In this document: positions 1 through 20,534 of the stretch, one piece after another | Layout: the number at the start of each line of letters is the position of its first letter | How positions within the stretch are numbered: position 1 is the first letter of the stretch | Origin: Roseibium sp. TrichSKD4 | GTDB lineage: Bacteria > Pseudomonadota > Alphaproteobacteria > Rhizobiales > Stappiaceae | DNA: 40,000 bases | Assembly (NCBI RefSeq): GCF_000148725.1 | Contig: NZ_GL476316.1 | Location: 4,605 to 44,604, forward strand | Direction: 5' to 3' | Notes under the pieces: model-generated | Databases searched by the model: none | The model's input: only the letters and a program-made list of their open reading frames with translations | What the model was told of the DNA's origin: nothing | Made by a program: the position numbers and the translations under genes

Positions 1-232
1 CTTCTCGTTCAAATCTCTCATCAAACGACATTCCAATATTGCTATACAAGACATGGATCAATCGTTCTTTTATTTGCGCAATTCTCCATTGTATCTCGAT
101 ATTTCTATTCAAATAAAAAGACATATTTCGTCTATCGTATTCGGATGTAATCAATATTAATACTAGCAAACCAAAAAGAAACGCGCCAATAACGCCAAAT
201 ATTAACTGGCTATTTTCTCGCAATTTTTTCAT
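1..232 (-). CDS. Partial CDS (N-terminus only) of a membrane-anchored protein, possibly a sensor
   Basis: Not in ORF track. ATG 232-230 overlaps the stop of the upstream gene (ATGA). My translation MKKLRENSQLIFGVIGAFLFGLLVLILITSEYDRRNMSFYLNRNIEIQW... is open to position 1 and has one clear TM helix. Confidence 0.35.
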   Translation of the reverse strand, partial: MKKLRENSQLIFGVIGAFLFGLLVLILITSEYDRRNMSFYLNRNIEIQWRIAQIKERLIHVLYSNIGMSFDERFERE

Positions 233-780
233 TTCTTGCTATGTGCTATTGCCGATACATGAAATACCCAAATTGCATTCCTCATATTCAGGTAATATTC
301 CGGCAGTTCTTTGAGCGGCCACACCAAAAATATCGGGCCATTTTCTGGAATGGTTATTGGTCTAAATAACTGCCCATCTGCACAAGCTTCAGTAATGTAA
401 TCTTGCGGTTCACAATTCCGCTCCACCGCCAATATTGGTGCGTATTGTGAAATTTCTGACCTTTTCACACCTGAGATAAAGCCGTTATGCGCAGATATCT
501 CGATATCATCCCCGCCAGTATTGTTATGCCGTAACAACAAATCTCCAAGAAACGGGCCTCGATATAATATCTCTTGGTTATTCGACCAAGGCGTTATAGT
601 TTCTATGGTATTCTGTTCATATTCATTCTTTAGGTCTTCTAATGTATATTTTCTTACAACGTCTCCTTCTTCGTTAAATATTTCCATATTTTCAAAGGAA
701 CCGCCCGCTATTGCGGGCATGGGAATATTCAACAAGGCAGTAAATATAGAAAACAGCAGTACAATACTTTTATTAAACAT
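229..780 (-). CDS. Secreted/periplasmic protein resembling the small oxidoreductase molybdopterin-binding-like domain proteins
   Basis: Signal peptide MFNKSIVLLFSIFTALLNIPMPAIA; motifs TITPW..., GPFLGDLL, NGPIFLVWP recalled from that family; GGGAGAG Shine-Dalgarno 5 nt before ATG; AT-rich. Confidence 0.5.
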   Translation of the reverse strand: MFNKSIVLLFSIFTALLNIPMPAIAGGSFENMEIFNEEGDVVRKYTLEDLKNEYEQNTIETITPWSNNQEILYRGPFLGDLLLRHNNTGGDDIEISAHNGFISGVKRSEISQYAPILAVERNCEPQDYITEACADGQLFRPITIPENGPIFLVWPLKELPEYYLNMRNAIWVFHVSAIAHSKK

Positions 781-1447
781 CTTGACTCTCCCTATCGTAA
801 GAAATACACAAATTACTAGAGTATTTTTTGTTTATTCTAAAGCCTTTACCATTTATATGGTTATTTATCGATCCTATTCCTGTGTGGCCGTATATTTGCG
901 GATGTAATTCCACACAAATGCGTTCTATCCCGAGCAATTTCGCATCTTCAAGAATTTCCTTTTCCGCCCCCTCTATATCCATTACTAAGCAGTTTATCGA
1001 ATTATCACGTATAAAATCGTCTATATTTCGAGTTTTTATCTTAATTACTTCCTCATATGGGCCTTGTTCCTTATACAAGGACGACATCCAAAACTCTTGC
1101 CGGATATAGAAATCCATTTCTCCATGGGCTTTTGCAGAAAAGGCCCCGATATTCAACGAGGCGACATTGTTGTTGTTGATGGTTGCTGTTCTCTTGAGTA
1201 ATTCGATAAGAGCCGGATTTGCATCAAAGCTCCATACTTTAACGTCTTCTATCTGGCTCAAAATCGTTGTAATAAAACCCATACCGGCACCGATTTCCAG
1301 AATACGATCACCGGGCTTTACAAGATTTTTCACACAATAGGCTTCATCAGACTCATACGTTTTATTGAGCAAGGCATCGACTATTTTTCCGGCAACTTCA
1401 TTTTCGTCAAGGTGCAATTTCACATCTTCTAAATTTACATGGAGCAT
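773..1447 (-). CDS. FkbM-family SAM-dependent methyltransferase
   Basis: SAM-binding motif ILEIGAGMGFIT and DIEGAE motif typical of FkbM family. Start moved to ATG 1447 (AGGAAG SD 6 nt upstream); the track ORF to 1564 overlaps the upstream gene. Confidence 0.6.
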   Translation of the reverse strand: MLHVNLEDVKLHLDENEVAGKIVDALLNKTYESDEAYCVKNLVKPGDRILEIGAGMGFITTILSQIEDVKVWSFDANPALIELLKRTATINNNNVASLNIGAFSAKAHGEMDFYIRQEFWMSSLYKEQGPYEEVIKIKTRNIDDFIRDNSINCLVMDIEGAEKEILEDAKLLGIERICVELHPQIYGHTGIGSINNHINGKGFRINKKYSSNLCISYDRESQDV

Positions 1448-1460
1448 CGTCCGCTTCCTA

Positions 1461-2054
1461 TTAAGCGTGTGTTCTAATCTTCTTTGAAGCATTCTTGTAA
1501 TGCTTACAAACCGTGTCCGTAGAAATATTATGTAGGTCTGCGTATTGTTGGTATTTATCGACAATACGTTCTGTTCTTCGCCGTGATTTTACAAAATTAT
1601 AAATACTCTGCTCACGGTCTGTAAGAAATGAATAATATTCCTCGTGTTCTTGAGATATATTTTTTGTATATTTGTTACCTTCACCTTTTGTTATTATTTC
1701 CTCTATCTGTCGGCTATCTAATCCTATTTTTGAAAGATATAATTCTGTTCCAGTTCCCAATAAATTTTCCTTTTCCTGAAAATCATAGGAGCCGGTAATT
1801 ACGACTTGAACCGCCGACGGGAATGCTTCACTTGCTGACAGAACTACATGCTGCCTATCTGTACGTGATAGCGGATTAAAACCGGGCAGTCCCGGATCAA
1901 TAAAAACAAAATCGAAATCCTCCCCTTCAAGTTCAAGTGCCGCGCAAAGTGTAGAGACACCGACAACATAGCTCTTTTCGCGCAATCTTGTGATGATCCC
2001 AATAATTGCCTTTCGCATAAGGTCATGATCTTCAACGACTAATACTCTCAGCAT
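1461..2054 (-). CDS. Response regulator: receiver domain + LuxR/FixJ-like C-terminal HTH
   Basis: VLVVEDHD, FVFIDPGLPG (phospho-acceptor Asp), VVITGS and LSK receiver landmarks; C-terminal LTDREQSIY...ISTDTVCKHYKNASKKI. ATG 2054 preferred over GTG 2066. AT-rich. Confidence 0.7.
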   Translation of the reverse strand: MLRVLVVEDHDLMRKAIIGIITRLREKSYVVGVSTLCAALELEGEDFDFVFIDPGLPGFNPLSRTDRQHVVLSASEAFPSAVQVVITGSYDFQEKENLLGTGTELYLSKIGLDSRQIEEIITKGEGNKYTKNISQEHEEYYSFLTDREQSIYNFVKSRRRTERIVDKYQQYADLHNISTDTVCKHYKNASKKIRTHA

Positions 2055-2071
2055 CGAAACCACCACATTTA

Positions 2072-3472
2072 CTAATTCATTGCGCAGGAACTATTTATAA
2101 GACCAAACAGCGTCTTATCTAAACGCAGTTCTCCACGCTCGGCCGCCGCCATCATACCCCTGAAATACCCCCCCGGACTGCTGATATTTGCTCCGCGCAA
2201 AAACTTCTCCGCTATGATCGCCGCGCAAAGTGCTGCCACATGATCCCCATGGTTTGCCGCACCCAATCTGTAGGCCGACGGTGAAAGACCTATACCGGCC
2301 CTGATCGTATCGGCCGCCATGAGAAGGTCAGACCATCGGTCAAGTTCAATATTGAAATTTGGACGTGTTTGGCACAACGCAGTGCGAACCAACTGGAAAT
2401 TAATCCCACTTACAGAGGTCTTACCGCGTTCGTCTCTCGATAGGGGTATTTGCTCTTGCTCGGATGAGCCGCCGCCGCAAGGCTCCTTTTCAAGAGCCAT
2501 TTCATTGCCGGAGGCAATGTTAGAGCTATTTCTGATGTCTTGCGCGTTAGCGCAAGTCCGCTCACTACTAGATACGTGTGTTTCTGGGTTTGTAGGATGT
2601 AAATGGGTGTCAGTTTTGTCACCCGACCATGACATTTTCTGTCCTTTATGAAGAGCTTGGTCTACCTCAGTCCACGCACCTTCAAGCAAAATGGATAGCG
2701 CTTCTGCCTTAGTTGCACGATCCGCAGCCATATCCTTGATGGCAAGAGCGTCTGCTTCTATGCGCGTGAAATCTACGCCCCCGTTTTCCGCCTGTATCCG
2801 CAGGTCTTCAAGGCTTCTCAAGGCTTGTTCAACTGCCCGCTTTGCAGCCCTATCACTTGCAAGCTTGGCTCGGTGCTCCTGTGCCAAGACCCTTAATTCA
2901 TCCAAACGCTGACGGGCAGGGGCAAAAGATAGCCCATAAACTTCCTGACCATTTTTAGATCGAAAACGGCGGCCTGTCGGGCTATCCCGATAAGCAAGTA
3001 TACCAGCTTCTACCAGACCTTTTAAAAGTCGGGATACAGTGCGCTCTGAACAAGCCAGCGCATTGGCTAGATAAGCGTTCGATAAAGTTGCAATCGGTTC
3101 GCGGTCATCGACCCAATCGCCAGATCGGGTTGCGCCCAAAAGCAGATCAAGAGCTTGGTAGCGCCCTCGTGTGATGTGAAGGGCCGGGCAGGCTGATTTG
3201 ATAACTCGGGCCGCTTCCGTTTTCGTGGTGTTGGCTTGGCACTTTTGCGCAGCCAGCGCCTGAGAAGCGACTATTTGTTGATTTATAGTTCTAAATTTAG
3301 CGGCGATAGACATAAGACTCCCCTCGTCCGGGAGCTTCTTCCGCTTGACTTTCAATCCATTTTCAGGGAAATTGATCTTGTCTAATTGCGAAAGACGCTC
3401 GACCCGACGCCTAGTTGGTTGGACGTTTAGTGTGTTTGTTGGAACCACCTTTTTGCTGGGACTGTTAGACAC
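2072..3472 (-). CDS. repC: RepC-like replication initiator protein
   Basis: N-half LANALACSERTVSRLLKGLVEAGILAYRDSPTGRRF resembles the RepC wHTH (..LVEAGLI.RRDSPNGKRY). C-terminus ISSPGGYFRGMMAAAERGELRL resembles the RepC C-terminal domain (..SPGGYLR..AG.F). Track start is GTG 3472; ATG 3313 with a GGGGAG SD is an equally good start. Confidence 0.75.
   Translation of the reverse strand: MSNSPSKKVVPTNTLNVQPTRRRVERLSQLDKINFPENGLKVKRKKLPDEGSLMSIAAKFRTINQQIVASQALAAQKCQANTTKTEAARVIKSACPALHITRGRYQALDLLLGATRSGDWVDDREPIATLSNAYLANALACSERTVSRLLKGLVEAGILAYRDSPTGRRFRSKNGQEVYGLSFAPARQRLDELRVLAQEHRAKLASDRAAKRAVEQALRSLEDLRIQAENGGVDFTRIEADALAIKDMAADRATKAEALSILLEGAWTEVDQALHKGQKMSWSGDKTDTHLHPTNPETHVSSSERTCANAQDIRNSSNIASGNEMALEKEPCGGGSSEQEQIPLSRDERGKTSVSGINFQLVRTALCQTRPNFNIELDRWSDLLMAADTIRAGIGLSPSAYRLGAANHGDHVAALCAAIIAEKFLRGANISSPGGYFRGMMAAAERGELRLDKTLFGLINSSCAMN
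2539..2556. repeat. Perfect inverted repeat CTTGCGC-GTTA-GCGCAAG inside the AT-richer linker of repC
   Basis: Read directly. It lies in the low-complexity linker between the two RepC-like halves; in repABC replicons the origin maps inside repC. Confidence 0.3.
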
Positions 3473-3474
3473 AA

Positions 3475-3503
3475 GCGCCAGCTGGTAACTGGCGCATCTT
3501 TTT
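3475..3503 (+). terminator. Terminator-like hairpin on the strand antisense to repC (candidate 3' end of a counter-transcribed RNA)
   Basis: GCGCCAG-N7-CTGGCGC (7-bp stem) followed by ATCTTTTT on the plus strand; no plus-strand CDS ends here. Confidence 0.4.
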
Positions 3504-3511
3504 CAGAAAAT

Positions 3512-3562
3512 CTGAACTCTTCTACTTTGTTGGGCGGCAACCCGGCAAAGTAGAAGGTTCAG
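3512..3562 (-). terminator. Long hairpin plus short U-tract between the small ORF and repC; candidate attenuator
   Basis: CTGAACTCTTCTACTTTG / CAAAGTAGAAGGTTCAG (17 bp, one bulge, 16-nt loop), followed on the minus strand by AGATTTTCTG. Confidence 0.4.
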
Positions 3563-3846
3563 TGATTCTCATCTGGAATAGTGTGCGCATGGTGCGGTAG
3601 CCTGTCAAATACGCTTTTGTGCATATTTTGTGGTCTTATTTGATCTGCCGTACGCTCGGACGCGATATGTTCACTGTACGGGGTCCGTAGACTTTCGATA
3701 TAAGGTAAGGAAATAGACCAGCCCCTGATTTCATAAATCTCTGCACGGATACCTGTAGCCGAAACAAATCGATAGCCGGTGCACTTAGCCTCCGGCCCTC
3801 TATTACAAGCATTAGTCATATAACCCTCACAACCAGAGCGCCCCAT
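3559..3846 (-). CDS. Hypothetical small protein divergent from the XRE gene (Cro/antirepressor position)
   Basis: ORF track; internal ATG 3819 has a GAGGG SD 4 nt upstream. No recognisable motif; position only. Confidence 0.35.
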   Translation of the reverse strand: MGRSGCEGYMTNACNRGPEAKCTGYRFVSATGIRAEIYEIRGWSISLPYIESLRTPYSEHIASERTADQIRPQNMHKSVFDRLPHHAHTIPDENH

Positions 3847-4006
3847 ACAGATGATCTCTATAATATACGCTTTAGGTTTATCAGATGGAATTTTTGCGAT
3901 CTATAGCGCATAATGTCAAGACATTTGTGTATTTACACCATTTCTTTAGAAGATAGATTTATTGGCACTATAGCGTGACAGCTATTCGTCCATTAGAGGG
4001 ATTTTC
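3847..4006. promoter_or_regulatory. Divergent promoter/operator region with two CTATAGCG boxes
   Basis: CTATAGCG at 3901-3908 and 3968-3975. Plus-strand TTTACA-16-TAGATT promoter-like element ahead of the 4007 gene; minus-strand CTTGACA overlaps the first box. Confidence 0.35.
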
Positions 4007-4360
4007 ATGATTAAAGAAGAGGCTGGGTGGCGCGACCGGTTGCGGGACGCTGTTCGCACGGACGGTCGCCCATTGTACAGGCTATCCGAAGAAATGGGCC
4101 GTGCGAACACCTACGTCAGCCAAGTGCTAAAGAATGAAAAAACTCCAAGCGTAGAAAATCTAATCCAACTCTGTAACGTTCTGAACGTTGATCCCGCTTA
4201 TATTCTTTCGGGCGTAACTCTTAGCAAGAAAGGCCAGCGAATTTCTGACCGATGGCAAAAGCTTCGCCCAATGGACCGAGACATGATTGAGGAACTACTG
4301 ATACGCCTCAGTGTTGACAGCATCCAACATGACGATGCAGATAACGATGATACTAAATAA
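4007..4360 (+). CDS. XRE-family helix-turn-helix regulator (repressor candidate)
   Basis: LYRLSEEMGRANTYVSQVLKNEKTPSVENLIQLCNVLNVDPAYIL is a typical Xre HTH; AGAGGG SD; acidic C-terminal tail. Confidence 0.7.
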   Translation: MIKEEAGWRDRLRDAVRTDGRPLYRLSEEMGRANTYVSQVLKNEKTPSVENLIQLCNVLNVDPAYILSGVTLSKKGQRISDRWQKLRPMDRDMIEELLIRLSVDSIQHDDADNDDTK

Positions 4361-4437
4361 ACAGATATCAAACATCTATTGACAGATACCTAATAACAAA
4401 CTACTGTCACCTAACTACTGTTATTAAGGGGTGCGGT
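4361..4437 (+). promoter_or_regulatory. parA promoter with two pairs of direct repeats (candidate operator/centromere)
   Basis: TTGACA (4379-4384)-17 nt-TACTGT (4402-4407); ACAGATA at 4361 and 4382; AACTACTGT at 4399 and 4413. Confidence 0.45.
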
Positions 4438-5106
4438 ATGGGATTTGTTTTTTCCGTTTTACAAAATAAGGGCGGGGCTGGAAAATCCACCCTTGTCATA
4501 GCGTTAGCCGGATTGTTGGCAAAGGAACCGGGGGCGCGTGTCATCATCGTAGACACAGACAAGCAGGAAAGCGCCGCCAAGTGGGCAGCCGTCGATATGC
4601 CGGGCAGGGGGCATATCGACTATGTGACTGAACTGGCTGAAACCGATATCACCGACCTGTTACGCCAACTTAGAGCCGAATACGATTACATCATCGTAGA
4701 CACAGCCGGGTTTGACAGTCGGATGGCGGGGTTTGTCATGGGGGGCAGTCAATTGTGCCTGATCCCGGTCAAGGCTACCGTCCCCGATGCCCAAGGGGCA
4801 ATTGCCACGGCCAAGAGTGTCACAGCCACAGCCAACATGATCCGCCAACACATTCCAACCCTTGGGGTGCGGATGGATTTCGACCCAAAAACCCGTGCGA
4901 CCGCTGCCATCAATGACCAATTGGCTTCATATGAAAAGCTGGAATTTGCTGACACAACCCTATGGCATGCTACCGGCTTTAAAGACGCCATGAACACAGG
5001 TGAAGCCGTCACCGGCCGGGCCAAGGGACTAACACAAAGCCTTTTGGTGGAACTCAGAAACAAAAAGCTCCTGCCTCTGCCCGGCGAATCCAGCCGCGCC
5101 GCATAA
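4438..5106 (+). CDS. parA: ParA-family partition ATPase (small, type Ib-like)
   Basis: Deviant Walker A NKGGAGKSTL near the N-terminus; IIVDTAG Walker B-like; 222 aa. Confidence 0.9.
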   Translation: MGFVFSVLQNKGGAGKSTLVIALAGLLAKEPGARVIIVDTDKQESAAKWAAVDMPGRGHIDYVTELAETDITDLLRQLRAEYDYIIVDTAGFDSRMAGFVMGGSQLCLIPVKATVPDAQGAIATAKSVTATANMIRQHIPTLGVRMDFDPKTRATAAINDQLASYEKLEFADTTLWHATGFKDAMNTGEAVTGRAKGLTQSLLVELRNKKLLPLPGESSRAA

Positions 5107-5116
5107 GGAATACACT

Positions 5117-5467
5117 ATGGCACCTTACAAGAAAAAACCGCGCTCTATCCTGCCCGATGACGATGCCAACACACCAGCGGCCATCCCGACAGGGCCGTAC
5201 CAAGAAGGAACGGTGACTGATAAGGCGGCTGCCATATCCGGTATGGTTGTAGGAAAGGCTTCCGAGCATCTGGCATGGGTGGACAGTTTCAGGAAGGCCG
5301 ACCGGGTGCAAATGTCGTTTACGGCCGTACCCGAACCGATCCGCGATATGTTCCGGGCGCGGGCAACAGAAATGGGGTTGGACCTGAAAGGCTATCTCTA
5401 TCATCTCTTGCGCCAAGATGGTCACCCGCTGCCCAGCCAGAAAGAGCTTGACGGCCGGTTCCGCTGA
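5117..5467 (+). CDS. Putative partition adaptor/centromere-binding protein (ParG-like ribbon-helix-helix C-terminus)
   Basis: Starts 10 nt after parA. C-terminal VQMSFTAVPEPIRDMFRARATEMGLDLKGYLYHLL fits a strand-helix-helix pattern. Confidence 0.45.
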   Translation: MAPYKKKPRSILPDDDANTPAAIPTGPYQEGTVTDKAAAISGMVVGKASEHLAWVDSFRKADRVQMSFTAVPEPIRDMFRARATEMGLDLKGYLYHLLRQDGHPLPSQKELDGRFR

Positions 5468-5492
5468 GCTTCACCAAAACACCCGCTTAAAA

Positions 5493-5538
5493 CAAAAAAA
5501 AGACCCGCCCCCGGATGAACCGGGGGCGGGTTTATTTG
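5493..5538. terminator. Bidirectional rho-independent terminator
   Basis: Perfect 11-bp stem CCCGCCCCCGG / CCGGGGGCGGG, loop ATGAA, A-run on the left and TTTATTT on the right; sits between convergent operons. Confidence 0.85.
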
Positions 5539-5678
5539 ATTGTAGTGGGGGTCCATTAGGGCTCAGTGATAAATCGTACGCTAGGCGATTTCAGCTTCCA
5601 TCTTGCGCCAGATGTACTGTCCGATAAGCAGGATGTGTTCCCACCCGAGCGTAGTGCAGGCCAGAAACAGGGGGTATG

Positions 5679-6071
5679 TCAGTCCGATACGGCTCGGCGC
5701 GTTGGATTGAAAGCGCTACGAGTAGCTGTCCAAACAAGGGTCAAGGTGAATAGTAACCAAGACCACTTCCGGCTGTTGCCTCTTGCTCGCAATGCCCTTC
5801 GGAACTCGCTCGATGCAAAATCCACATCTCGTCCACGACGCAAGAACACATCATGGACGGCGGCTGCAGGTAGTACACTGCGGTCATGTGGGTCTTGTGC
5901 CCATTCCAACCACCACGGAACAGAAATATCGAAAGGCGTTCCTGCCGGGATGATTTCAGTGTGGCCAGAGCCTTTCCAGCCAATATCCCAATAGAGCGGT
6001 TTGGTCAGAACATAGGCTTTGCGCGTGCCCTGCACATGCTCGAAATGCTCGAATGTCGAAAAGCTGGACAT
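5679..6071 (-). CDS. DUF1353-like phage protein (last gene of fibre cassette)
   Basis: Pattern ...IIPAGTPFDISVPWW...AAAVHDVFL recalled from the DUF1353 family commonly found after tail-fibre genes. Confidence 0.45.
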   Translation of the reverse strand: MSSFSTFEHFEHVQGTRKAYVLTKPLYWDIGWKGSGHTEIIPAGTPFDISVPWWLEWAQDPHDRSVLPAAAVHDVFLRRGRDVDFASSEFRRALRARGNSRKWSWLLFTLTLVWTATRSAFNPTRRAVSD

Positions 6072-6074
6072 GGA

Positions 6075-6644
6075 TCAAGCCGCCGAGAGCCACTTCGTTA
6101 GAGCCGCCGCCGCTTCCGCCTCAGAGGCTTCGAGGATAGCGGCCACCTCTTCTGCGGTGTCTGCCGCTTTTATGGCTGCATCGGTTCGCTCTTTCAGATC
6201 ATCCGCTTGACCAATCAGATCATCGAAGGTTTCCGCCTTCTTTAGTATCAAATTGGCAAAAGCATCAAAGGCCATATCGCGGCGGTCCGCGCCACCTTCA
6301 ATGATCCGCGTCTGTTTTTCGCTGGCTGTTCCTTCCAGATACTTTTCAGCGGCCAATGCCTTTCGCGGCCAAGAGTGCATCTCTTCATCGCTGGCATTAC
6401 CTGAAAGTCTGCGAAGTGTTTCTGCATGACGCTGTTTTACAGCCTTCACAGCTTCGGATTTGACCTCATCAAGGGGGCGGACAGGTACAGGCGGCGGCGC
6501 AAAACTACCGTCTGGCTGCTGGATGTAGCCGAGGGAAACTCCGTCCGGGACGGAATGCGCGTTTTCCCGGTCCGCAAGGCCCTGCAGAACCTGACACCAA
6601 GCGATCACTACGCCGTCTTGGTCAACATTAACAAAGCCTGTCAT
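6075..6644 (-). CDS. Putative tail-fibre assembly chaperone
   Basis: 4-nt overlap with the end of the fibre gene; position equivalent to P2 gpG; alanine/glutamate-rich C-terminus. Confidence 0.45.
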   Translation of the reverse strand: MTGFVNVDQDGVVIAWCQVLQGLADRENAHSVPDGVSLGYIQQPDGSFAPPPVPVRPLDEVKSEAVKAVKQRHAETLRRLSGNASDEEMHSWPRKALAAEKYLEGTASEKQTRIIEGGADRRDMAFDAFANLILKKAETFDDLIGQADDLKERTDAAIKAADTAEEVAAILEASEAEAAAALTKWLSAA

Positions 6645-8215
6645 GCCTGTCGCTCCCTCAAATTAATCCAAGACGAGCCCTTTTCGTCATACAGTCCGGT
6701 CCCTCCTGAAACGGTACGATTAATGTAAACTGTCTTTGTCCCGGTGTCCGACGACTGAGCCATAAGGCGGTAAGTGTTACTGCCTGCGGTAGGCGAGGTG
6801 TCGATAAAGCCTGCCAAGCTTCTATGGTCCGGCGTGCTGTTATTGTCGGGGTCATAGGTAGGTGTAAAAAGTCCATTCGCACCGGGGGCACCTCCGCCAG
6901 TACCGCGCAACAAGTCGGTGCCGTTTCGCGTCAGCCACAATACTACGTTATGGTTACACTCGAAAAACATTGACAGGTCAATTTGAACGTGGTTCCCGGC
7001 CTTCACGTTATCAATCGTTGTCGTAAACAACGCAATTTCAATACCTGACGTTGCTGTCCAAGCAGGCGCGGTATATGTCGCTTGCGTACTGAATTGGTTC
7101 ACCACACGGTTTTTCGCGACACGTTCCAGCTCGCCCGCCTTCGACACAACCGCATTGAGCGATGCAACATAGGCCAGCGCTTGGACGACTTCAGGAGCAT
7201 CAACCGTATCTGCTGCCTTGATGTACCAATCGACTGTGAGGGATTTGACGCGGGTCTCTGAGGCTGTACGAACGCCGGGGACCGCTGATGCAGGTCCTGT
7301 CAGAGGGTGAGTTTCATTACCTTCTGCCGCATTACCCTGAGGCAATTCTTGACTTTCACCAGTTTCGGCGACTGTACGACCGGAACCGAATGTGCGGACA
7401 GAAGTGCGCGCGGTTCCATCAGACACATTGGAGGCGTAAGCGTCTTCGTGCGGGTGGTCTTGGAACGCATCTTCAAGCACCGTTCCGGCAGCACCTGCCA
7501 AGGGACCTGCCCCGCGCAAAACCCGATCATCAGGATCAGGCAGCACGCCATCCGGGTATTTCAGCGCCAGTTTTTTGTAGATCGTGACATCAAAGGTCGC
7601 ACCATTCCCAAGCTTCAGCCAGCCGGGACCAAAACCAGTGCCAGAAGGGTCCCCCAGTATCCCGCCAACCGGCACCCCGTCACCAGACCCGATATCCACC
7701 CACGCGCCGCCGTCGCCCCGCGTTGGGTCAAAATATTGCGGCTTGCCACCCTCCGGGGCCATGCGAGTCTCGACAGCCCGCTTGGACTGATGCTCCATCA
7801 CGGTTGCTGCAAAGTTCGGATCATCCCCAAGCGCATTGGCGAGCTCCTGAATGGTATCCAGCAACTCCGGCGCATTGCCTCCGAGCAGCTGCTCCAATTG
7901 AGACGCCAATTGCGCAAGAGCCATTTCCAGCGTCTTAGTACCGTGCTTCACGTCCTTACTGGTTAAGGCGTCATTCTTCCATGCCTGACCATCATGACGC
8001 AGAACTTCACCAGCCTTTGGCGCGGTTACAGTCACACTGCCATTGTCGCCCAGATCGCGGGTGCCAACCGATGCAATGGCTTCCTTTGCCTCTGAAATAT
8101 GCTGATCAACATCGGTAATGGTTTTCTTGATCCGGCGGATATCATCCAGTGCGTCATTATTTTCATCCGGTAGGAGCAACCCCAAATTCGGGGTCTTGTT
8201 GTCTATGATGGCCAT
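6641..8215 (-). CDS. Tail fibre protein with tail-collar-like domain
   Basis: N-terminus KTPNLGLLLPDENNDALDDIRR.. typical of fibre N-termini; GPGWLKLGNGATFDVTIYKKLALKYP...LPDPDDRVLRGAG resembles the phage tail collar motif. Confidence 0.7.
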   Translation of the reverse strand: MAIIDNKTPNLGLLLPDENNDALDDIRRIKKTITDVDQHISEAKEAIASVGTRDLGDNGSVTVTAPKAGEVLRHDGQAWKNDALTSKDVKHGTKTLEMALAQLASQLEQLLGGNAPELLDTIQELANALGDDPNFAATVMEHQSKRAVETRMAPEGGKPQYFDPTRGDGGAWVDIGSGDGVPVGGILGDPSGTGFGPGWLKLGNGATFDVTIYKKLALKYPDGVLPDPDDRVLRGAGPLAGAAGTVLEDAFQDHPHEDAYASNVSDGTARTSVRTFGSGRTVAETGESQELPQGNAAEGNETHPLTGPASAVPGVRTASETRVKSLTVDWYIKAADTVDAPEVVQALAYVASLNAVVSKAGELERVAKNRVVNQFSTQATYTAPAWTATSGIEIALFTTTIDNVKAGNHVQIDLSMFFECNHNVVLWLTRNGTDLLRGTGGGAPGANGLFTPTYDPDNNSTPDHRSLAGFIDTSPTAGSNTYRLMAQSSDTGTKTVYINRTVSGGTGLYDEKGSSWINLRERQA

Positions 8216-8237
8216 AAAAAAAACGGCCCTTCGGCCG
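8216..8237 (-). terminator. Rho-independent terminator immediately upstream of the fibre gene
   Basis: Minus strand CGGCC-GAAG-GGCCG followed by T8. Confidence 0.6.
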
Positions 8238-8242
8238 CCCTC

Positions 8243-8488
8243 CTAGCTTGGTGTTTCTTGAAGAATGTCGGGTGTTGTTTCAGGGGGTGAGCGCAAAAGT
8301 GCCAGTCGCCCCCGGTAAACCGCCGCACAATCAGCGCGGGCCTTCATTTCGTGGATTGCTGCCGCCCATATTCGACCGACAATTTCCAGATGTTCCGGGT
8401 TTTCCGCCCGCCAACATTCAAAGGTGAAATCAGCAACAAACATTTGATAACTAATATCTGTTGCCTGTTTATAGTCATCCCTCAACAT
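8243..8488 (-). CDS. Hypothetical protein (81 aa)
   Basis: Track ORF 8243-8605 trimmed to ATG 8488, which overlaps the gpD-like stop by 14 nt; no recognisable motif. Confidence 0.4.
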   Translation of the reverse strand: MLRDDYKQATDISYQMFVADFTFECWRAENPEHLEIVGRIWAAAIHEMKARADCAAVYRGRLALLRSPPETTPDILQETPS

Positions 8489-9626
8489 ATGGGGCTGACC
8501 AGCCATACTTGCTTTTCCCGGCCGTTTTCTTTGCTCTGCCGGGAACGTTTTCCTGCTTGCCGCTTGATGCCGTGTTACCAGACGTGGGCTTCCCGCCTGA
8601 TGCACCCTTGTAAAGCTCGCAGGTCAAACCCGTCTCATAGCCGCCCTGTAGGCTATGCGTTGCGGTTTTGATCCGCCAAAGGGTTGGAATGCCCGGATTA
8701 AAGCCGGACAGTTCCAAAAGACATTCAGCGCGAATGTCAGGATTTCCCAAAACCTTGACTGAGAAACTTCCCGCACCGCGTGTTTTCTGGTTCAACTCAC
8801 TGGCAGCGACCGCTTCAGCCGACGCCCGGCTGACCTCTGTTTGGCGTAGGTCGCAAAAGGGAGCTTTGCCCACTTCTACAAAATCCTTAACCCCCGCTGC
8901 CCGATCATAAAAATGTGCCCTGTACCCGCCCGGTTCGCGGGCAGTTTCAGTCCCGGAAATTCCGCCCGCCGCGCCACCTTCTTCACGGCCGGAATAATCA
9001 AAGGTGAAAGCGCTCTCTCCGCCAATACAATCCTTCGGCTTGATAGTGATGATGTCAAAGGCCGCGCCGTTCACCTCTTGCCCGGTTCCCCGCCGCGCCA
9101 AGACCAAGCGCCCATCCATCGGACGGGCGACACCGTCAAACTTCTGGGCCAGTCGGGTCAAAAAGCTCATATCGCTTTCTGAAAACTGATCTTGGTGAGG
9201 AATTTCAATTGCGCCAAGTTCCGAGTCTATGACCGGTTCATACCCATGACGAGCCGCCGCCGCTTGCACCATTTCGCCCAAGGTTGAACCATGGTGCGAC
9301 TGAAATCGCGGGGTGCGATAGCTTTCCACCAGATTGGCAGCATGACATTTAACCGACAATGTGCCGTAACTCAGGCTCGCGCTATCGATAATATAGCGCC
9401 CCATATCCCTTAATTGTCCTATCCCGTCACTAAGAAGGCAGGATAACTCAACTCCAATGGGGGGCAGGGGAAAGGGGCTGACACCTTCTGGGCGGGCGTC
9501 AACCTCGAATGAAAGAGCGTCTGACTTATCTTCCGCTTCATCCGTCACCTCCAAGGACAAAAGCCGCTGGTCCAGATCATAGGGCAGATCAATCCCGCCC
9601 CGGCGCAATCGGGCATATGGTTTCAT
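8475..9626 (-). CDS. P2 gpD-like tail protein (late control gene D family)
   Basis: LLSLEVTDEAEDKSDALSFEV.. and IPHQDQFSESDMSFLTRLAQKFDG match remembered P2 gpD blocks (LLSLTLTDNRGFEADQLDIEL, IPHIDQSQESDAKFLTRLAERNGG). Confidence 0.85.
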   Translation of the reverse strand: MKPYARLRRGGIDLPYDLDQRLLSLEVTDEAEDKSDALSFEVDARPEGVSPFPLPPIGVELSCLLSDGIGQLRDMGRYIIDSASLSYGTLSVKCHAANLVESYRTPRFQSHHGSTLGEMVQAAAARHGYEPVIDSELGAIEIPHQDQFSESDMSFLTRLAQKFDGVARPMDGRLVLARRGTGQEVNGAAFDIITIKPKDCIGGESAFTFDYSGREEGGAAGGISGTETAREPGGYRAHFYDRAAGVKDFVEVGKAPFCDLRQTEVSRASAEAVAASELNQKTRGAGSFSVKVLGNPDIRAECLLELSGFNPGIPTLWRIKTATHSLQGGYETGLTCELYKGASGGKPTSGNTASSGKQENVPGRAKKTAGKSKYGWSAPYVEG

Positions 9627-9649
9627 GCGGGTTACCTTCGGTTTTCTGC

Positions 9650-9862
9650 CTATCCCCAGACACGCAAGGGCCGGGTAACCTGTTCTTTTGATGTATCCGG
9701 CAAAGTGATTTTCAGGCCAGCGGGTAGAACGATATCTTCAAGAGCCAAGAAAGCGTTCAGTTTGTAGGTTTCATCTGTGGCGTGGCTTACATCCACATCC
9801 GGCAATTGATCGGCGCAAATAGCGTCGACCATGTCGCCCGCCTTGGTTTCATAGTCAGCCAT
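9650..9862 (-). CDS. P2 gpX-like tail protein
   Basis: Track ORF trimmed to ATG 9862, overlapping the gpU-like stop; 70 aa; size and position as P2 X. Confidence 0.65.
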   Translation of the reverse strand: MADYETKAGDMVDAICADQLPDVDVSHATDETYKLNAFLALEDIVLPAGLKITLPDTSKEQVTRPLRVWG

Positions 9863-10247
9863 AGCTTTCCAACTCCACGTCAAATTCAATCTTTCGGGGT
9901 CGGCCATCGGGATAAAAATAAGTGGCCGTTTCAGAAAGGCGGGTAATGACGACCTGACCCCAATTTCGCCCGCTTCCATCTGCAAGCAACATCGGAAGAC
10001 CTTTACCCGCCGCCGCCGCCATAACGGCAATCTGATCAGCGCCGCCATGGCGCGTGTAAATCACGCCAGACAAGGTAATGACCTGCGGGGCCTCGGTGAC
10101 ATATTGCTGAGCCGTTTTGCCTCCAAGCCGCCCCTTTTTGGCATATTCAAAAGACCATTGCCGGGCCGCTTGCTGATAAGGCCGCTCCGCCATACCAAAG
10201 CGAAACGGGCCAAGGCCCATCATGACCCGGCGGTCAATTTCTGCCAT
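9855..10247 (-). CDS. P2 gpU-like tail protein
   Basis: GLGPFRF...PYQ...ITLSGVIY...GLPMLLADGSG...YFYPDGRPRKIEFDVEL parallels the remembered P2 gpU. Confidence 0.8.
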   Translation of the reverse strand: MAEIDRRVMMGLGPFRFGMAERPYQQAARQWSFEYAKKGRLGGKTAQQYVTEAPQVITLSGVIYTRHGGADQIAVMAAAAGKGLPMLLADGSGRNWGQVVITRLSETATYFYPDGRPRKIEFDVELESYG

Positions 10248-10313
10248 GCCGCGCCTCCATTTTCTGTACTGGTTTGATAGAGCGGCTAACGCCCCGCTCT
10301 AGCAGGCACCGCT

Positions 10314-12128
10314 TTACCCATCGCGCAGCGATGCCGTCGCGGCCTGCTGCTGTTTACGCAAGGGGCCGGTCGCCGCCTGTCCGGCGCGTGCGCCAAAGGC
10401 CATCGGATCAACGCCCGGCGGGGACGTGACATGCACAGAAAGCGAGCCTATCGAACTATCAATCTTGTTGTGGTGGACTGATTTACGCGCTTCGGCACCA
10501 ACCTCGTGAGCCGCAGAAATCCGGGCTGCAACACTGGATTTTCGATTGTCATTCTGTGCAATCGGCGGCGGGGTCTGGGGTGCGCTGGTCAGGCCCAATT
10601 TTTCGCCCAACCACCCCAGATCAATCAATGATCTAAGACCCGCCATTTTCTCTTCAAGCCAGCTGGTCAATTCATTCCAGCCTGACGCCAACCCGTCCAG
10701 AATACCGTTCACCATATCACGGCCAAGAGCCGCCATCTCTTCGTAAAAGCGGCCTGCCAGCGCACCCAGTTCAGCCAGCCAGCCGTTCACAACATCAACA
10801 GGCGAAAATTCCAGCCATTTTTCTGACAAATGATCCAAGGATTTGATGATCAAGGTTAGCGGATTAAACTGGTTCCAGACTTCCCAGACCCCCGTCACCC
10901 AACCCTTATCGAAGGCGGCGGCAATCTTCTGCCAAGCTCCCTCCCACCAGCTGACCAATTCCGACCAATTATCCATGATCAAAAGGGCGGCTCCGGCTAT
11001 CCCCGCGATGATCAGCCCAACGGGGTTAAACAGCATAATCAAGGCCACCTTAAGCAGTGCTGCCCCAACTGACAGGATAGATGCGACCAAGGGGCCGAGC
11101 GTGATGGCCCCAAGCGCGCCAATCGCCAATTCAAGATTGCTGACCGGGCCGGTCACGGTCTCAATTGCCGATTTGATCTTTCCGAACGTTTCGCCAACGT
11201 CTGAAATTATTTGTTTCAAGTCTTTCAAATGACCCGGCAAATCCTTGGCAAAATTTTCGGCCCACGCTCTAATCAGTTCCTTGTTATTGGCGACCAATTC
11301 ATTGAACTTGTTTATCAGATCGGTCACAACCGGAGCCAGAGAGGCCCCAATACTGTTGGAAAGACCTTCAAAGACAACGCCCAAATTGGTCATTGCGTCG
11401 GTCAGGTTTTCTCCGTTGGCCGCATCTTCCGCGCTGATAACAGCGCCAAGGTGAAAGGCTTCGGCTTTCAGTTTCTCGATAGCTTCCGGGCCAGCCTCGC
11501 CAAAAAGGGCCATCCGCTGACCTGATCGGCCAAACATAGCGGTTGCGGCGGCCGCTCGCTTGCTTTCATCCTTGATCTCAGAAAGGGCTTCCAGTGCCAT
11601 TTCAAAGGCTTTGGTCGGGTCATTTTCAGCGACCATGCGCTTTGCAAGTTCCGGTCCGACCTTCTTTAAAAAGGCGTACATCGGCCCAGACCCCGATTTC
11701 ATTTCCCCCAATCGCTTGGAAAAGGTCATGGCAGACGTATCAAACGACGCCTTGTCTACGCCCGACCGATCACCGGCATATCGCAAGGCTTGCAAGGTCT
11801 CCACATTCATGCCCGTGGCGCGGCCCATCTTGGCAATCGCATCCCCGGCCCCTGCAAACCCGGTCACCATTTTGGTCGCCGCCGCCGTGGCGGCTATCCC
11901 CGCCCCGGCGATGGTCACCCCCAAGGTTTTGACCCGTTTCGTCAAACCACGCACCCGCTCTCCAACCTTGGCAAGGCCGCTGGCGTCGGCAAGGGTTGAA
12001 AAAGCCCGCTTGATCTTCTTGATAGGGCGGCTCAAACGGTCCAGTGCCTTCTCAACCCGGCGCATGGGCGCAGTGATCTTGTCGATCAGGCCGACCTTGA
12101 TTTCGACCTGTCCGTTCTTTTTACTCAT
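10314..12128 (-). CDS. Tail tape measure protein
   Basis: 604 aa; Ala/Gly-rich helical N-half, central hydrophobic segment, position after the E/E' chaperone. Confidence 0.85.
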   Translation of the reverse strand: MSKKNGQVEIKVGLIDKITAPMRRVEKALDRLSRPIKKIKRAFSTLADASGLAKVGERVRGLTKRVKTLGVTIAGAGIAATAAATKMVTGFAGAGDAIAKMGRATGMNVETLQALRYAGDRSGVDKASFDTSAMTFSKRLGEMKSGSGPMYAFLKKVGPELAKRMVAENDPTKAFEMALEALSEIKDESKRAAAATAMFGRSGQRMALFGEAGPEAIEKLKAEAFHLGAVISAEDAANGENLTDAMTNLGVVFEGLSNSIGASLAPVVTDLINKFNELVANNKELIRAWAENFAKDLPGHLKDLKQIISDVGETFGKIKSAIETVTGPVSNLELAIGALGAITLGPLVASILSVGAALLKVALIMLFNPVGLIIAGIAGAALLIMDNWSELVSWWEGAWQKIAAAFDKGWVTGVWEVWNQFNPLTLIIKSLDHLSEKWLEFSPVDVVNGWLAELGALAGRFYEEMAALGRDMVNGILDGLASGWNELTSWLEEKMAGLRSLIDLGWLGEKLGLTSAPQTPPPIAQNDNRKSSVAARISAAHEVGAEARKSVHHNKIDSSIGSLSVHVTSPPGVDPMAFGARAGQAATGPLRKQQQAATASLRDG

Positions 12129-12145
12129 GTCGGATAAACCCCTGT

Positions 12146-12570
12146 TCAGATCGTCCCGGCCTTGGCGCGGGTTGTGATCAATTCATTGGCGCGAAAATAC
12201 CAAGTGACCCCTTCGCTCAACCCCATGTCATCTGCGACATGAGGCGGCCAGCCATAAGCAACGGCCAATGTCTCGCAGAAGTCGAAATAGGCGGGAACTA
12301 CTTCGACTTCTTGATAAAACCCTCGATTTTGTCAGAAATCGCGGTAACGTCCGAAACATCCAGTTCCGCTATATCATCGGGGGTCAAGCCGCCTCCAATG
12401 GGCGTAGAACAAAGCGCCATGACGAGTTGTTCCACCTGGCTCGTTTCCCCTTTCGTGTTCTCTTGCATTCCCTTGATATCCCGCCATTTAGGGCGACGGA
12501 TTTCGATTTCCGAAACCTCAGCACCGGAAATGGTGATGGGGTGTTGGAGGTTGATAGTTTCAGTTTGCAT
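12146..12570 (-). CDS. Tail assembly chaperone E+E' fusion made by -1 programmed frameshift
   Basis: After a -1 slip at 12322-12316 I read 56 open codons YQEVEVVPAYFDFCETLAVAYGWPPHVADDMGLSEGVTWYFRANELITTRAKAGTI, ending at TGA 12148-12146, 18 nt before the tape measure ATG. The W-P-P...L...W pattern matches P2 E' extensions. Confidence 0.7.
12298..12570 (-). CDS. Tail assembly chaperone (P2 gpE-like), zero-frame product
   Basis: 90 aa; ..LQHPITISGAEVSEIEIRRPKWRDI.. pattern of the E/gp41 chaperone family; lies between the tube and tape measure genes. Confidence 0.75.
   Translation of the reverse strand: MQTETINLQHPITISGAEVSEIEIRRPKWRDIKGMQENTKGETSQVEQLVMALCSTPIGGGLTPDDIAELDVSDVTAISDKIEGFIKKSK
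12316..12322 (-). promoter_or_regulatory. Slippery heptamer G GGT TTT (X XXY YYZ) for -1 frameshift
   Basis: Minus strand reads GAG GGT TTT ATC in the zero frame, 5 codons before the gpE stop. Confidence 0.65.
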
Positions 12571-12617
12571 GGGTCTTTTCCTTGATTTTCCCGCACATGA
12601 AGCGGGCGCTACTCATG

Positions 12618-12644
12618 AAAAAAGGGGCAGCCAAGCCGCCCCTT
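12618..12644 (-). terminator. Probable rho-independent terminator/attenuator between the tube and chaperone genes
   Basis: Minus strand GGGGC-G-GC UUG GC-U-GCCCC (one mismatch) followed by T6. Confidence 0.45.
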
Positions 12645-12691
12645 GATGTTTATATTTTTGGCCTTCGCCTAAACTGGCTTTAAGTCAGGCA

Positions 12692-13198
12692 TTAGAGGCC
12701 GATATGGTTTCGCTCGTCCTCTTTCCAGTCTTCGCCCCAGACCCGGAATATACAGTTCTCAATATCAATGAAGAGCGCTTCCTTGCCGTCCTCAATGATC
12801 TCGTAGTGCTCCACCTCTCCGGTGATGGTGGTGCTGTTTTTCGACCCCATGGAAAGGGTGCCCAGATCGTAGGAAGAAAAAGAACCGGTGACCTTGTAAA
12901 TGATCTGGGTGCCGCCTTTTCCTTGCTGTTTATTCGACGTTCTTAGCACGATGGACGCACCAAGACCGGGGCCGAAGAGGTGTTTCAGAAGCTCGTGCTT
13001 GGTGCCGTGAATGGTCAGGGTGATTTGCATGGCTTCCTGTCCAAGGTCTTCCTTCAAGACCCCATCCATGCCCCCGCCCCGCGTTTCTTCCATAACACGG
13101 GTGATAACCGGGGGTGTGACTTCATTGACCACCCCCGCATAGCCAATCCCATCAATAGTAAGGGACATATTTCGCTGAATATTCGCACGGGCCATCAA
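12692..13198 (-). CDS. Major tail tube protein (P2 FII-like)
   Basis: ..MSLTIDGIGYAGVVNEVTPPVITRVMEETRGGGMDG.. parallels P2 FII (..FLNGYSYQGVAKSVTLPKLTRKLENYRGAGMNG..). Confidence 0.85.
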   Translation of the reverse strand: MMARANIQRNMSLTIDGIGYAGVVNEVTPPVITRVMEETRGGGMDGVLKEDLGQEAMQITLTIHGTKHELLKHLFGPGLGASIVLRTSNKQQGKGGTQIIYKVTGSFSSYDLGTLSMGSKNSTTITGEVEHYEIIEDGKEALFIDIENCIFRVWGEDWKEDERNHIGL

Positions 13199-14346
13199 AC
13201 AAGCTCCTTAATGTATTCATCCGTAATTACGGTGCGGAACGTCATATTTTCGTTCGGATAAACCGGCGTCCATTCGCAATCCAGATAGGTCTTTCCCTGT
13301 TCGATCTGGTTGGCCTCGTTCAGATCGGCAGACGGGAAAGCATGGCCGCCCAAAATAGCCTCTTGCGCCTTCAAATAGCGAAAATACTTGTTGCAACCTT
13401 CTGCAACGTCTTCCAAGAGGGTCTTGGTAATTGGCCGGTCAATTGCCCACCGGTGCGCATACTCAATGCTCTCAAAGATCATGTCATGAGCACGGACTAC
13501 AGCCGTGAATTGCCATTTTGGATCATCAGCGCAGCCCCGGTTGCCCCAATAGCGGAAGCCCATATTCCGAATACCGCAGGAAATGTCCTGTGAATTGAGG
13601 TAATTGGCCGTGGAGTCATAGCCTGACCCGGCGTAATCGACAGGACGCTCAAAACCCGACACGTTCATGGTCTGGTTAGAATGAGACCACCACCAACCTC
13701 GTTCACGATCAAGGGTTGCTCTCAAACCGGCCGCCGCTGAACTCATTGGCTCCGCCGTCAAGATGCCATTTTGCGACACCATGACCTTTTGGTAAATCAA
13801 CTCGACGCGCTTGGAGTTAAAATTCCGGCGGAAGGCTACAGCTTCGGCCGGGTTAGCTGCATTGGTATCGGCAAAAATAATTGCCCGCAGGCGGTCCGCG
13901 ATAGAAATCATCTCATTGACAACTTCAACCTTGTGCGAAAAACCGGGTGCAATCAGGATTTTGGGACGCACCCCGTGCAGACTTTCAGACGCCCTAAAGG
14001 CATGCACTCCGGTATAGCCTCCCGTATCCGGGTCCAACCCACCAATAATATTTGCCAGCGTTCCGGCCTCGTCGTCCCCTTCGGCCACTCGGACAACAAC
14101 GACCGTTGTAGCGTCTTGGTCAAAAATCGTATCCAGCGCGCTTGGCAAAGTGCCCCGGTCCCCCAGAAGGGCCGCCGATGCGCGCCGACCGATCATCAAG
14201 ACCGGTTTATTGAGTGGGAACGCACTTTCATCAGCGTCCGGCGCAACGCCGATCAAACCGATAACACCGGATTTCACTGTCCTGACCGGGCGCGACCCTG
14301 TGTCGATTTCGACAATCTCCACACCATGATAAAAGTCTGTCGTCAT
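13195..14346 (-). CDS. Contractile tail sheath protein (P2 FI-like)
   Basis: N-terminus DFYHGVEIVEIDTGSRPVRTV...DADESAFPLNKPVLM closely parallels P2 FI (DYHHGVQVLEINEGTRVISTV...DADAETFPLNKPVLI). Confidence 0.9.
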   Translation of the reverse strand: MTTDFYHGVEIVEIDTGSRPVRTVKSGVIGLIGVAPDADESAFPLNKPVLMIGRRASAALLGDRGTLPSALDTIFDQDATTVVVVRVAEGDDEAGTLANIIGGLDPDTGGYTGVHAFRASESLHGVRPKILIAPGFSHKVEVVNEMISIADRLRAIIFADTNAANPAEAVAFRRNFNSKRVELIYQKVMVSQNGILTAEPMSSAAAGLRATLDRERGWWWSHSNQTMNVSGFERPVDYAGSGYDSTANYLNSQDISCGIRNMGFRYWGNRGCADDPKWQFTAVVRAHDMIFESIEYAHRWAIDRPITKTLLEDVAEGCNKYFRYLKAQEAILGGHAFPSADLNEANQIEQGKTYLDCEWTPVYPNENMTFRTVITDEYIKELV

Positions 14347-14356
14347 GGGATTTGCT

Positions 14357-14385
14357 CCACAAAAAAGGCCCCATAACGGGGCCTT
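14357..14385 (-). terminator. Strong rho-independent terminator between the lysis cassette and the sheath gene
   Basis: Minus strand AAGGCCCC-GUUAU-GGGGCCUU followed by TTTTGTGG. Confidence 0.7.
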
Positions 14386-20533: not shown

Positions 20534-20534
20534 G

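Follow-up and report, generated by a model that had tools for sequence, protein, structure and literature searches.

A solitary RepC initiator and a ParF-like partition pair in a complete Roseibium myovirus suggest maintenance as a phage-plasmid

Is a contractile-tailed phage that carries a plasmid replication initiator of the RepC type maintained in its host as a plasmid? This question is raised by a 40,000-nucleotide stretch of DNA (hereafter the window), the RepC, ParA and 116-aa proteins of which have counterparts of 100% identity in Roseibium sp. TrichSKD4, encoded on a contig of 44,623 bp; the window thus represents about 90% of a 44.6-kb phage contig. Genes for packaging, head, tail and lysis are contiguous on this one molecule with genes for plasmid replication and partition, the latter forming a maintenance block between the end of the late operon and the early region. 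Judged by its gene content, the element is a complete temperate contractile-tailed phage of a marine Roseibium with a plasmid maintenance block, and its most likely state in lysogens is that of a circular phage-plasmid of low copy number. This reading is based on the size of the contig, the lack of any host gene in the 41.5 kb of it that were seen, the mid-genome position of the integrase and the presence of partition genes together with a toxin-antitoxin pair, as well as on the embedding of the module between phage genes in related elements and on a 41-kb relative with overlapping ends.

The sequence seen, 41.5 kb of the 44,623 bp, comprises the window and a left flank taken from a contig (L001) of the Logan assembly of an independent sequencing run, SRR9418970, which reproduces the window in pieces and adds 1,510 bp at its left. 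No host housekeeping genes were found in the window and no host genes in the entire 41.5 kb, nor does the latter contain genes for a type IV secretion system, a relaxase or any other component of a plasmid backbone. No tRNA genes that could serve as integration targets were found, and no long direct att-like repeats across the window bracket the phage. Near-identical DNA was detected neither in PLSDB nor among the GenBank phages, and neither RepC nor the flanking DNA had a match in the GTDB representative genomes. The Logan contigs of SRR9418970 have no overlapping ends and do not close into a circle, the breaks between them looking like sites of low coverage. The re-assembly of this run showed zero differences from the window over 35 kb, which speaks against a decaying, non-inducible remnant that has kept its rep/par and phage genes and makes no particles. 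In addition, all late genes are intact long open reading frames (ORFs), closely packed into an operon in which no frameshift was noticed, and even though a cargo insertion adjoins repC, decay of this kind seems very improbable.

The maximal ORF of repC (2072-3472, minus strand) codes for 466 aa and contains both motifs that the preliminary description of this DNA had taken as hallmarks of RepC, LVEAGILAYRDSPTGRRF and SPGGYFRG..AERGELRL. This assignment was borne out by searches with domain models. The N-terminal model PF03428 (RP-C), which includes the winged helix-turn-helix, matches residues 61-223 of the 466-aa ORF with 100.4 bits (cut-off 24.4), the C-terminal model PF11800 (RP-C_C) scores 64 bits (cut-off 32.6), and the NCBIfam equivalog NF040974 (RepABC_RepC) scores 217.5 bits (cut-off 150) over model positions 12-392 of 393. 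Since the product annotated by NCBI is 413 aa long and the family alignments start at about residue 60 of the 466-aa ORF, the true coding sequence is probably the shorter one (Table 1), preceded by a leader of about 245 nt. The operon layout of repABC is absent: upstream of repC neither a RepA of about 400 aa nor a RepB is encoded, and the gene is preceded by an 86-aa ORF and then by the divergent xre-parA operon. The initiator is therefore of the RepC_soli type, defined as a RepC homologue without adjacent repA or repB (PMC4148982). It shares at most 41% identity with any other RepC found, its nearest relatives (38-41% identical) being located on ordinary conjugative or repABC plasmids. Used as a single query, it gave no match in IMG/VR and none in the JGI metagenomes, and a tblastn search (E<=1e-5) detected no RepC-like genes in GenBank phages. 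The RepC homologues found on two contigs of about 40 kb (P0040 and P0031) proved to belong to ordinary mobilisable or repABC plasmids. Meanwhile, the IMG/VR viral contigs L058 and L059 each carry two different RepC genes, one of them solitary and the other in a full repABC operon.

For the replication of plasmid p42d, repC alone is necessary and sufficient; the origin falls within an A+T-rich part of this gene, and the protein works in cis (PMC3155836). The A+T-rich stretches of the window's repC are mild (gene nucleotides 601-760 and 901-980, 42-46% GC versus a gene mean of 51%). At comparable relative positions, the repC of a related metagenomic contig, L013 (described below), has a marked A+T dip (33-40% versus 58% GC). 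Within the leader, a hairpin with 16-bp arms (3519-3556) is accompanied by a terminator-like hairpin on the plus strand, antisense to the leader (3475-3495) and followed by the T-run ATCTTTTT; the latter is suggestive of a terminator of an antisense, counter-transcribed RNA (ctRNA). An Rfam scan returned neither a ctRNA nor any other RNA family, even at E<=5. The 86-aa ORF has no family match and is 48% identical over 33 aa to an ORF in the equivalent position of L013.

The second component of the block, a ParA with the deviant Walker A motif NKGGAGKST (KGGAGKST being residues 11-18), has no N-terminal DNA-binding domain. It scores above the cut-offs of the Pfam models AAA_31, VirC1 and CbiA and below that of the NCBIfam model ParA_partition (104 versus 180 bits). 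Because the solved structures matching it best are ParF (4dzz, E 9e-13) and ParA (5u1g, E about 1e-12) of TP228, the protein can be assigned to the small type Ib ATPases, in agreement with the preliminary description. A search of IMG/VR with a ParA alignment gave no match, and that of the JGI metagenomes only distant ParAs (25-47% identity).

The 116-aa protein encoded directly downstream of parA had been proposed to end in a ribbon-helix-helix (RHH)-like domain. The position of the gene is correct, and the RHH assignment is supported only at the level of the predicted fold, whereas homology to ParG was not supported (hhalign E 0.11, probability 0.5%, not significant). The protein, disordered at its N-terminus and predicted to form an RHH at its C-terminus, matches no Pfam, NCBIfam or PHROG family. 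A word-based search returned only the protein itself, yet it is no orphan, as an exhaustive HMMER search recovered a family of 38 cluster representatives of about 100-125 aa with the pattern R-x-Q-x-x-F-x-x-V-P-x-P-I-...-F-...-A-...-G-M-x-x-K-E-Y-L-Y-H-L-L-R. The order of a small ParA followed by this partner is kept in five other loci, namely the Logan contig L013, a contig of Pseudovibrio sp. Ad26 (L012), an ENA metagenome contig (L014) and two circular Rhodobacterales plasmids. Homologues of the partner occur in 13 PLSDB plasmids; the two inspected are both complete circular plasmids of Rhodobacterales, and in both a replication initiator is followed by ParA and then by the partner homologue. 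The AlphaFold model built with the family alignment reached a predicted local distance difference test (pLDDT) score of 85 (94-98 at residues 60-110) and contains helices 73-85 and 90-100 after an extended segment; the single-sequence AlphaFold2 model was poor (pLDDT 55). In a Foldseek search of the PDB at least 24 of the 36 matches were RHH proteins, among them Arc, ParG (1p94, rank 4), CopG, VapB, AmrZ, NikA and MazE, with target-normalised TM-scores of 0.6-0.75 but with E-values of 2-10, which are not significant; in a profile search of the PDB, Arc was aligned in register (E 0.21). The 116-aa protein is a probable ParA partner with a probable RHH fold and, by analogy, a functional counterpart of ParG rather than a demonstrable member of the ParG family. 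A provisional role as the RHH-type partner of a small ParA on Rhodobacterales plasmids thus appears for a family that had been unannotated.

The gene preceding parA encodes an Xre-family helix-turn-helix regulator (HTH_3, 29.2 bits versus a cut-off of 23), which was formerly regarded as the head of the par operon. The regulator is indeed there, but the comparison with its homologues makes a role as a simple operon head less likely: Xre is conserved beside RepC and not beside ParA. It shares 36% identity with its counterpart in L013 and 37% (E 1e-26) with that of the viral contig IMGVR_UViG_2841905807_000001, where the gene is directly divergent from that of RepC and no par genes are found. Because of this conservation with RepC, Xre is more likely to be a regulator of rep, or of rep and par together. 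Promoter-like sites, which are consensus matches only, are located in the AT-rich region on the way to both operons (3919-3890 leftward to repC and 3932-3959 rightward to xre-parA).

The spacer between xre and parA contains two copies of ACAGATA and two of ACTACTGT, only four short motif copies in all, with TAATAAC/GTTATTA at the flanks. As AGTTAT-type repeats akin to these are present upstream of parA in L013 and in the Paracoccus plasmid p8, the spacer may be considered a candidate par operator or centromere. A search with the parS consensus of repABC plasmids, GTTNNCNGCNGNNAAC (PMC9040568), gave one match with one mismatch at 4313-4328 against a chance expectation of 1.66; this sequence, GTTGACAGCATCCAAC, is not palindromic, its first half being identical to the parS of pAMI4, and the repABC parS consensus is not present above chance. 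In addition, the 19-bp palindrome ACAGATATCTATTATCTGT is located just upstream of the sheath gene (14400-14418), and a copy with one mismatch just upstream of the toxin-antitoxin operon (34156-34174); looser copies are found in the xre-parA spacer (4361-4379) and upstream of the fibre gene (8443-8461). ACAGATA was observed 11 times where about 3.8 are expected. The ACAGATATCTATTATCTGT-like palindrome may be a common operator linking plasmid and late-phage promoters.

On its other side, the par operon converges on the late operon of the phage. The bidirectional terminator noted earlier between the two was called on both strands and consists of a GC-rich stem of 12-14 bp, which is preceded by a run of A and followed by a run of T. 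The late operon encodes the small terminase subunit (TerS), a Dam-type methyltransferase, a gpA-type large terminase subunit (TerL), a Phage_portal_2 portal, an S49 protease, a gpD-like decoration protein, a gpE-like major capsid protein and connectors, along with baseplate proteins, a DUF4815 protein, endolysin, sheath, tube, tape measure, a gpD-like tail protein, fibre and a DUF1353 protein. The virion genes match PHROG and Pfam families with E-values from 1e-20 to 1e-237. The myovirus gene set is complete, packaging genes included, and the head and packaging part is lambda-type, just as the preliminary description had it.

TerL (27584-29467) is at most 53% identical to any relative, and no close phage relative is present in PLSDB, the GenBank phages or IMG/VR. 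The closest characterised relatives (41-46% identity) include those of Acidithiobacillus phage AcaML1, Roseobacter CRP phages and Wolbachia WO phages; the head-baseplate-tail gene order is presumably similar to that of the WO phages. An IMG/VR scan with a TerL alignment yielded 80 relatives, none of which had RepC or ParA in the fetched flanks; UViG_2841905807 was not among them. The 1,083-aa DUF4815 protein (16137-19388), encoded between the baseplate genes and the endolysin gene, is 44% identical to proteins of two IMG/VR relatives and about 33% identical to proteins on some alphaproteobacterial plasmids. A single-query search of IMG/VR with it returned nothing, and the PLSDB relatives reach no more than 34% identity.

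Table 1. Features of the analysed window; the last row refers to two IMG/VR viral contigs.
Feature	Position	Strand	Basis or remark
Low-GC cargo island (38% GC): 183-aa protein, FkbM-type methyltransferase, LuxR-type response regulator	1-2066	-	Composition, Pfam/NCBIfam
repC, solitary (RepC_soli-type) replication initiator, 413 aa (probable coding sequence)	2072-3313	-	Pfam, NCBIfam, annotated product
repC leader	3314-3558	-	Hairpins 3519-3556 and 3475-3495
Small conserved ORF upstream of repC, 86 aa	3559-3819	-	Gene call of the Logan assembly
AT-rich divergent promoter region, 32-38% GC	3820-4006	.	Consensus promoter matches
Xre-family HTH regulator, 117 aa	4007-4360	+	HTH_3
xre-parA spacer, 77 bp	4361-4437	.	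Short repeats
parA, small type Ib (ParF-like) Walker ATPase, 222 aa	4438-5106	+	Pfam, PDB matches
Probable ParA partner, 116 aa	5117-5467	+	10 nt past the parA stop codon
Bidirectional intrinsic terminator	5497-5537	.	Called on both strands
Complete myovirus late operon	5679-31746	-	PHROG, Pfam
Phage-type tyrosine integrase, 351 aa	32401-33456	+	Between late and early regions
Type II toxin-antitoxin pair: RelE/ParE-family toxin (33812-34126), antidote (33507-33815)	33507-34126	-	NCBIfam, Pfam
Early region of small ORFs, about 6 kb	34238-40000	-	SieB-like gene, phrog_14076 regulator
phrog_14076 early regulator	39309-39554
Paired RepC genes	L058: 2777-4036 and 9983-11257; L059: 1657-2850 and 9983-11260

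Two elements that the preliminary description did not contain, the tyrosine integrase and the RelE/ParE toxin-antitoxin pair (NCBIfam scores of 136 and 108 bits, both above cut-off), bear on the manner in which the phage is kept. The integrase resembles bona fide phage integrases. Hence the element might be an integrative temperate phage whose lysogeny depends on this enzyme, with RepC as a lytic or transient initiator and with ParA, its partner and the toxin-antitoxin pair as accessory or relict genes. A 260-bp non-coding stretch upstream could hold attP; none of the ORFs tested was recognisable as a helicase, primase, O/P-like or other replication gene, and homologues of ParA and its partner occur in an integrated Pseudovibrio prophage. 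However, the integrase has a mid-genome position and is flanked left and right by phage genes, an unintegrated permutation which indicates that the phage is not integrated via a site beside int. Given also that the 41.5 kb seen of the 44.6-kb contig are free of host genes, that RepC, partition genes and a toxin-antitoxin pair together make up a standard low-copy plasmid toolkit and that repABC is present in the relative whose contig ends overlap, a purely integrative lifestyle is considered unlikely.

Within the early region, the SieB-like superinfection-exclusion gene (35119-35709) has a GC content of only 32%, so that it is probably a separately acquired moron. A 25-nt repeat occurs four times (72-100% identical) at the starts of small early genes (37031, 37303, 37530 and 38719), and its reverse complement holds a Shine-Dalgarno sequence and an ATG, suggesting cassette-like gene starts.

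Whether the rep/par module is a part of the phage was assessed by comparison with related loci. The metagenomic Logan contig L013 (8,991 bp) carries the window's block at 35-65% protein identity (RepC 35%, ParA 63%, partner 46%), the order of genes being a phrog_14076 regulator homologous to the early regulator of the window, a C5 methyltransferase, a 186-aa gene (phrog_15385), RepC, a small ORF, Xre, ParA, the partner, a terminator and a tail-fibre assembly gene. The last of these (phrog_105, E 5e-20) is convergent, i.e. in L013 as in the window the par operon shares a bidirectional terminator with phage genes transcribed towards it.

The viral contig UViG_2841905807 (41,132 bp), the closest relative in respect of the tail module, is a circular assembly, because its last 273 nt are identical (100%) to positions 5-277. 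Its host is probably Pseudovibrio, and the RepC of its repABC operon is 79% identical to a protein of Pseudovibrio japonicus. Its genes for the tail terminator, the baseplate and the DUF4815 protein match positions 22614-16251 of the window in collinear order (38-53% identity by segment; the DUF4815 proteins share 44% over 1,079 aa), as do its tape-measure and gpD-like genes for positions 12390-8640; 11 kb of this genome, including any head genes, lie outside the sequence read. Directly divergent from the Xre gene is a solitary RepC gene, followed by a gene of the 186-aa family (40% identical to that of L013, E 3e-32), other members of which were found neither in PLSDB nor in phages. Further along come a serine resolvase, HipBA and a repA-repB-repC operon in full. 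Four tandem tail-fibre genes with near-identical N-termini (MAVTPNLNLPLLDS...) are located at 4099-12321 of the sequence read (L061), and two of them have chaperone-like genes behind them, an arrangement suggestive of a multi-fibre cassette for host range.

The window itself begins with a low-GC island, which extends about 1.4 kb to the left of it (L001 110-1510), where a histidine kinase and a 75-aa ORF are encoded. The whole island measures 3.5 kb and has a GC content of 38-39% compared to 50-55% elsewhere; a PADLOC scan of the island and the accessory genes revealed no defence match, and nothing beyond the methyltransferase. Beyond the island, at the far left of the Logan flank, a partial ORF matches the N-terminus of the 186-aa gene (52% identity over 31 aa of basic-rich sequence), which is suggestive of the same phrog_15385 gene that follows RepC in the relatives. 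The island thus seems to have been inserted between repC and the gene that usually adjoins it. Taken together, the comparisons of L013, the island flank and UViG_2841905807 point to a conserved core of Xre, RepC and the 186-aa gene, around which stability modules seem to have been swapped between elements.

These data also bear on a prophage inserted in or beside an ordinary RepC_soli plasmid, in which case rep/par and the island would be plasmid backbone and the contig a fragment of a larger replicon. The location of the nearest RepC relatives on ordinary conjugative or repABC plasmids fits such an arrangement, the low-GC island with its two-component system looks like plasmid cargo, and the ends of the contig lie outside the sequence seen. 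On the other hand, phage genes flank the module on both sides in L013, and its Xre-RepC core is also present in the viral contig of 41 kb whose ends overlap; the partial ORF past the island appears to belong to the phage family phrog_15385 that follows RepC in relatives; the 41.5 kb contain no type IV secretion, relaxase or other backbone gene; and one bidirectional terminator serves both the par and the late operon in the window and in L013. A prophage in a larger plasmid is accordingly judged improbable, and several lines of sequence comparison indicate that the rep/par module belongs to the phage genome and not to adjoining DNA.

A number of observations nevertheless weigh against an episomal phage-plasmid. 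In Pseudovibrio sp. Ad26 (LMCE01000146.1, a 471-kb contig; region 9300-20666), the closest homologous pair of ParA and partner (62% and 49% identity) borders on the left a prophage that appears to be integrated, next to the curli genes csgF and csgG and to a Dam-type methyltransferase 47% identical to that of the window, with no Xre or RepC nearby; since the pair rides there at the edge of an integrated prophage, a par module is no guarantee of an episome. The window's phage-type integrase, a kind of enzyme perhaps uncommon among described phage-plasmids, leaves room for integration, the rep/par block abuts a foreign low-GC island, and the sequence coverage excludes the contig ends and about 3.1 kb of the TrichSKD4 contig. 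Moreover, the A+T dip inside repC is weak, and ctRNA, iterons and a convincing centromere array were all searched for and not found.

If the element is a phage-plasmid, its maintenance can be pictured as follows. RepC, expressed from a promoter within the divergent AT-rich stretch, would initiate replication, by analogy with p42d RepC acting in cis at an A+T-rich origin inside its own gene, while the divergently encoded Xre would set the expression of rep and perhaps par. The ParF-like ParA and the 116-aa RHH-type adaptor would segregate the copies via the short repeats upstream of parA, the RelE/ParE pair would penalise loss of the element, and the integrase might resolve multimers or offer an alternative integrated state. 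As the sole recognisable replication initiator in the 41.5 kb seen, RepC may start lytic replication as well. In a more far-reaching version of this scheme, RepC with its intragenic origin would be the only initiator for both low-copy maintenance and lytic replication, the integrase would switch between integrated and plasmid states, and a shared ACAGATATCTATTATCTGT-like operator would tie together the par, late-tail and toxin-antitoxin promoters. Such an arrangement is put forward tentatively and, as a whole, seems rather doubtful; if true, the phage would possess a replication and lifestyle module of a type so far undescribed for RepC proteins.

Phage-plasmids are increasingly regarded as hubs of gene exchange between phages and plasmids. 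The present element would place the main plasmid initiator of the Alphaproteobacteria, in its solitary form, within a lineage of small myoviruses of marine Stappiaceae (Roseibium, probably Pseudovibrio), and the apparently interchangeable stability modules would extend the published picture of one plasmid backbone combined with many phages. In practical terms, the block of 2.0-5.5 kb is a candidate compact replicon for Roseibium genetics. The combination of a solitary RepC, a ParF-like/RHH pair, a myovirus and an integrase was not found described in the literature searched. The element opens no new category, however, and the preliminary description overstated its case in regarding a RepC replicon on a phage as not well described: RepC-type phage-plasmids are already known, published examples being pLM21S1, B1VFA, V1VFA-S and the phage-plasmids of 40-50 kb from Rhodobacterales.

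Among these, pLM21S1 of Sinorhizobium sp. LM21 (117.5 kb) has a RepC-like system and is related to phage RHEph10 (PMC5537653), and the Rhizobium siphophages B1VFA and V1VFA-S carry parA, parB and repC (PMC12509600). Together with RHEph10 and RHph_X66 they are, like the present element, alphaproteobacterial phage-plasmids or plasmid-like prophages with RepC-like and partition genes. They differ from it in being siphophages of 117-122 kb from Rhizobiaceae, as opposed to a 44.6-kb myovirus of a marine Stappiaceae host, and the partition genes of B1VFA and V1VFA-S are parA/parB, whereas here a ParF-like ParA is paired with an RHH-type partner. The RepC-like proteins of this group were undetected by tblastn with the present RepC at E<=1e-5. 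In respect of partition, the closest parallel is ParF/ParG of TP228: the ParA described here is likewise a small Walker ATPase without an N-terminal helix-turn-helix and matches ParF best, and its partner, although without significant sequence similarity to ParG, is likewise small, its N-terminus being flexible and its C-terminus predicted to adopt the RHH fold.

Replicons based on a solitary RepC are an established type (PMC4148982), and RepC_soli plasmids such as pGal_E78 of Phaeobacter gallaeciensis resemble the present element in having RepC without repA and repB; these plasmids and p42d are, however, at least 78 kb in size and carry no phage genes. The circular viral contig UViG_2841905807 shares syntenic baseplate, DUF4815, tape-measure and gpD-like tail genes with the window at 33-52% identity, but it is devoid of the ParA/RHH pair, carrying repABC, a serine resolvase and HipBA instead, and has four fibre genes in tandem. 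Finally, according to Shan et al. 2023 (PMC10090143), the Rhodobacterales phage-plasmids of 40-50 kb carry ParABS and RepABC, and recombination joins their plasmid backbones to different phages. The 42-kb phage-plasmid of Tritonibacter mobilis A3R06 and its kin share with the element from Roseibium a marine alphaproteobacterial host, a size of 40-50 kb and the combination of structural, partition and toxin-antitoxin genes; the A3R06 element relies on parAB and a P4-family primase, the one described here on a solitary RepC.

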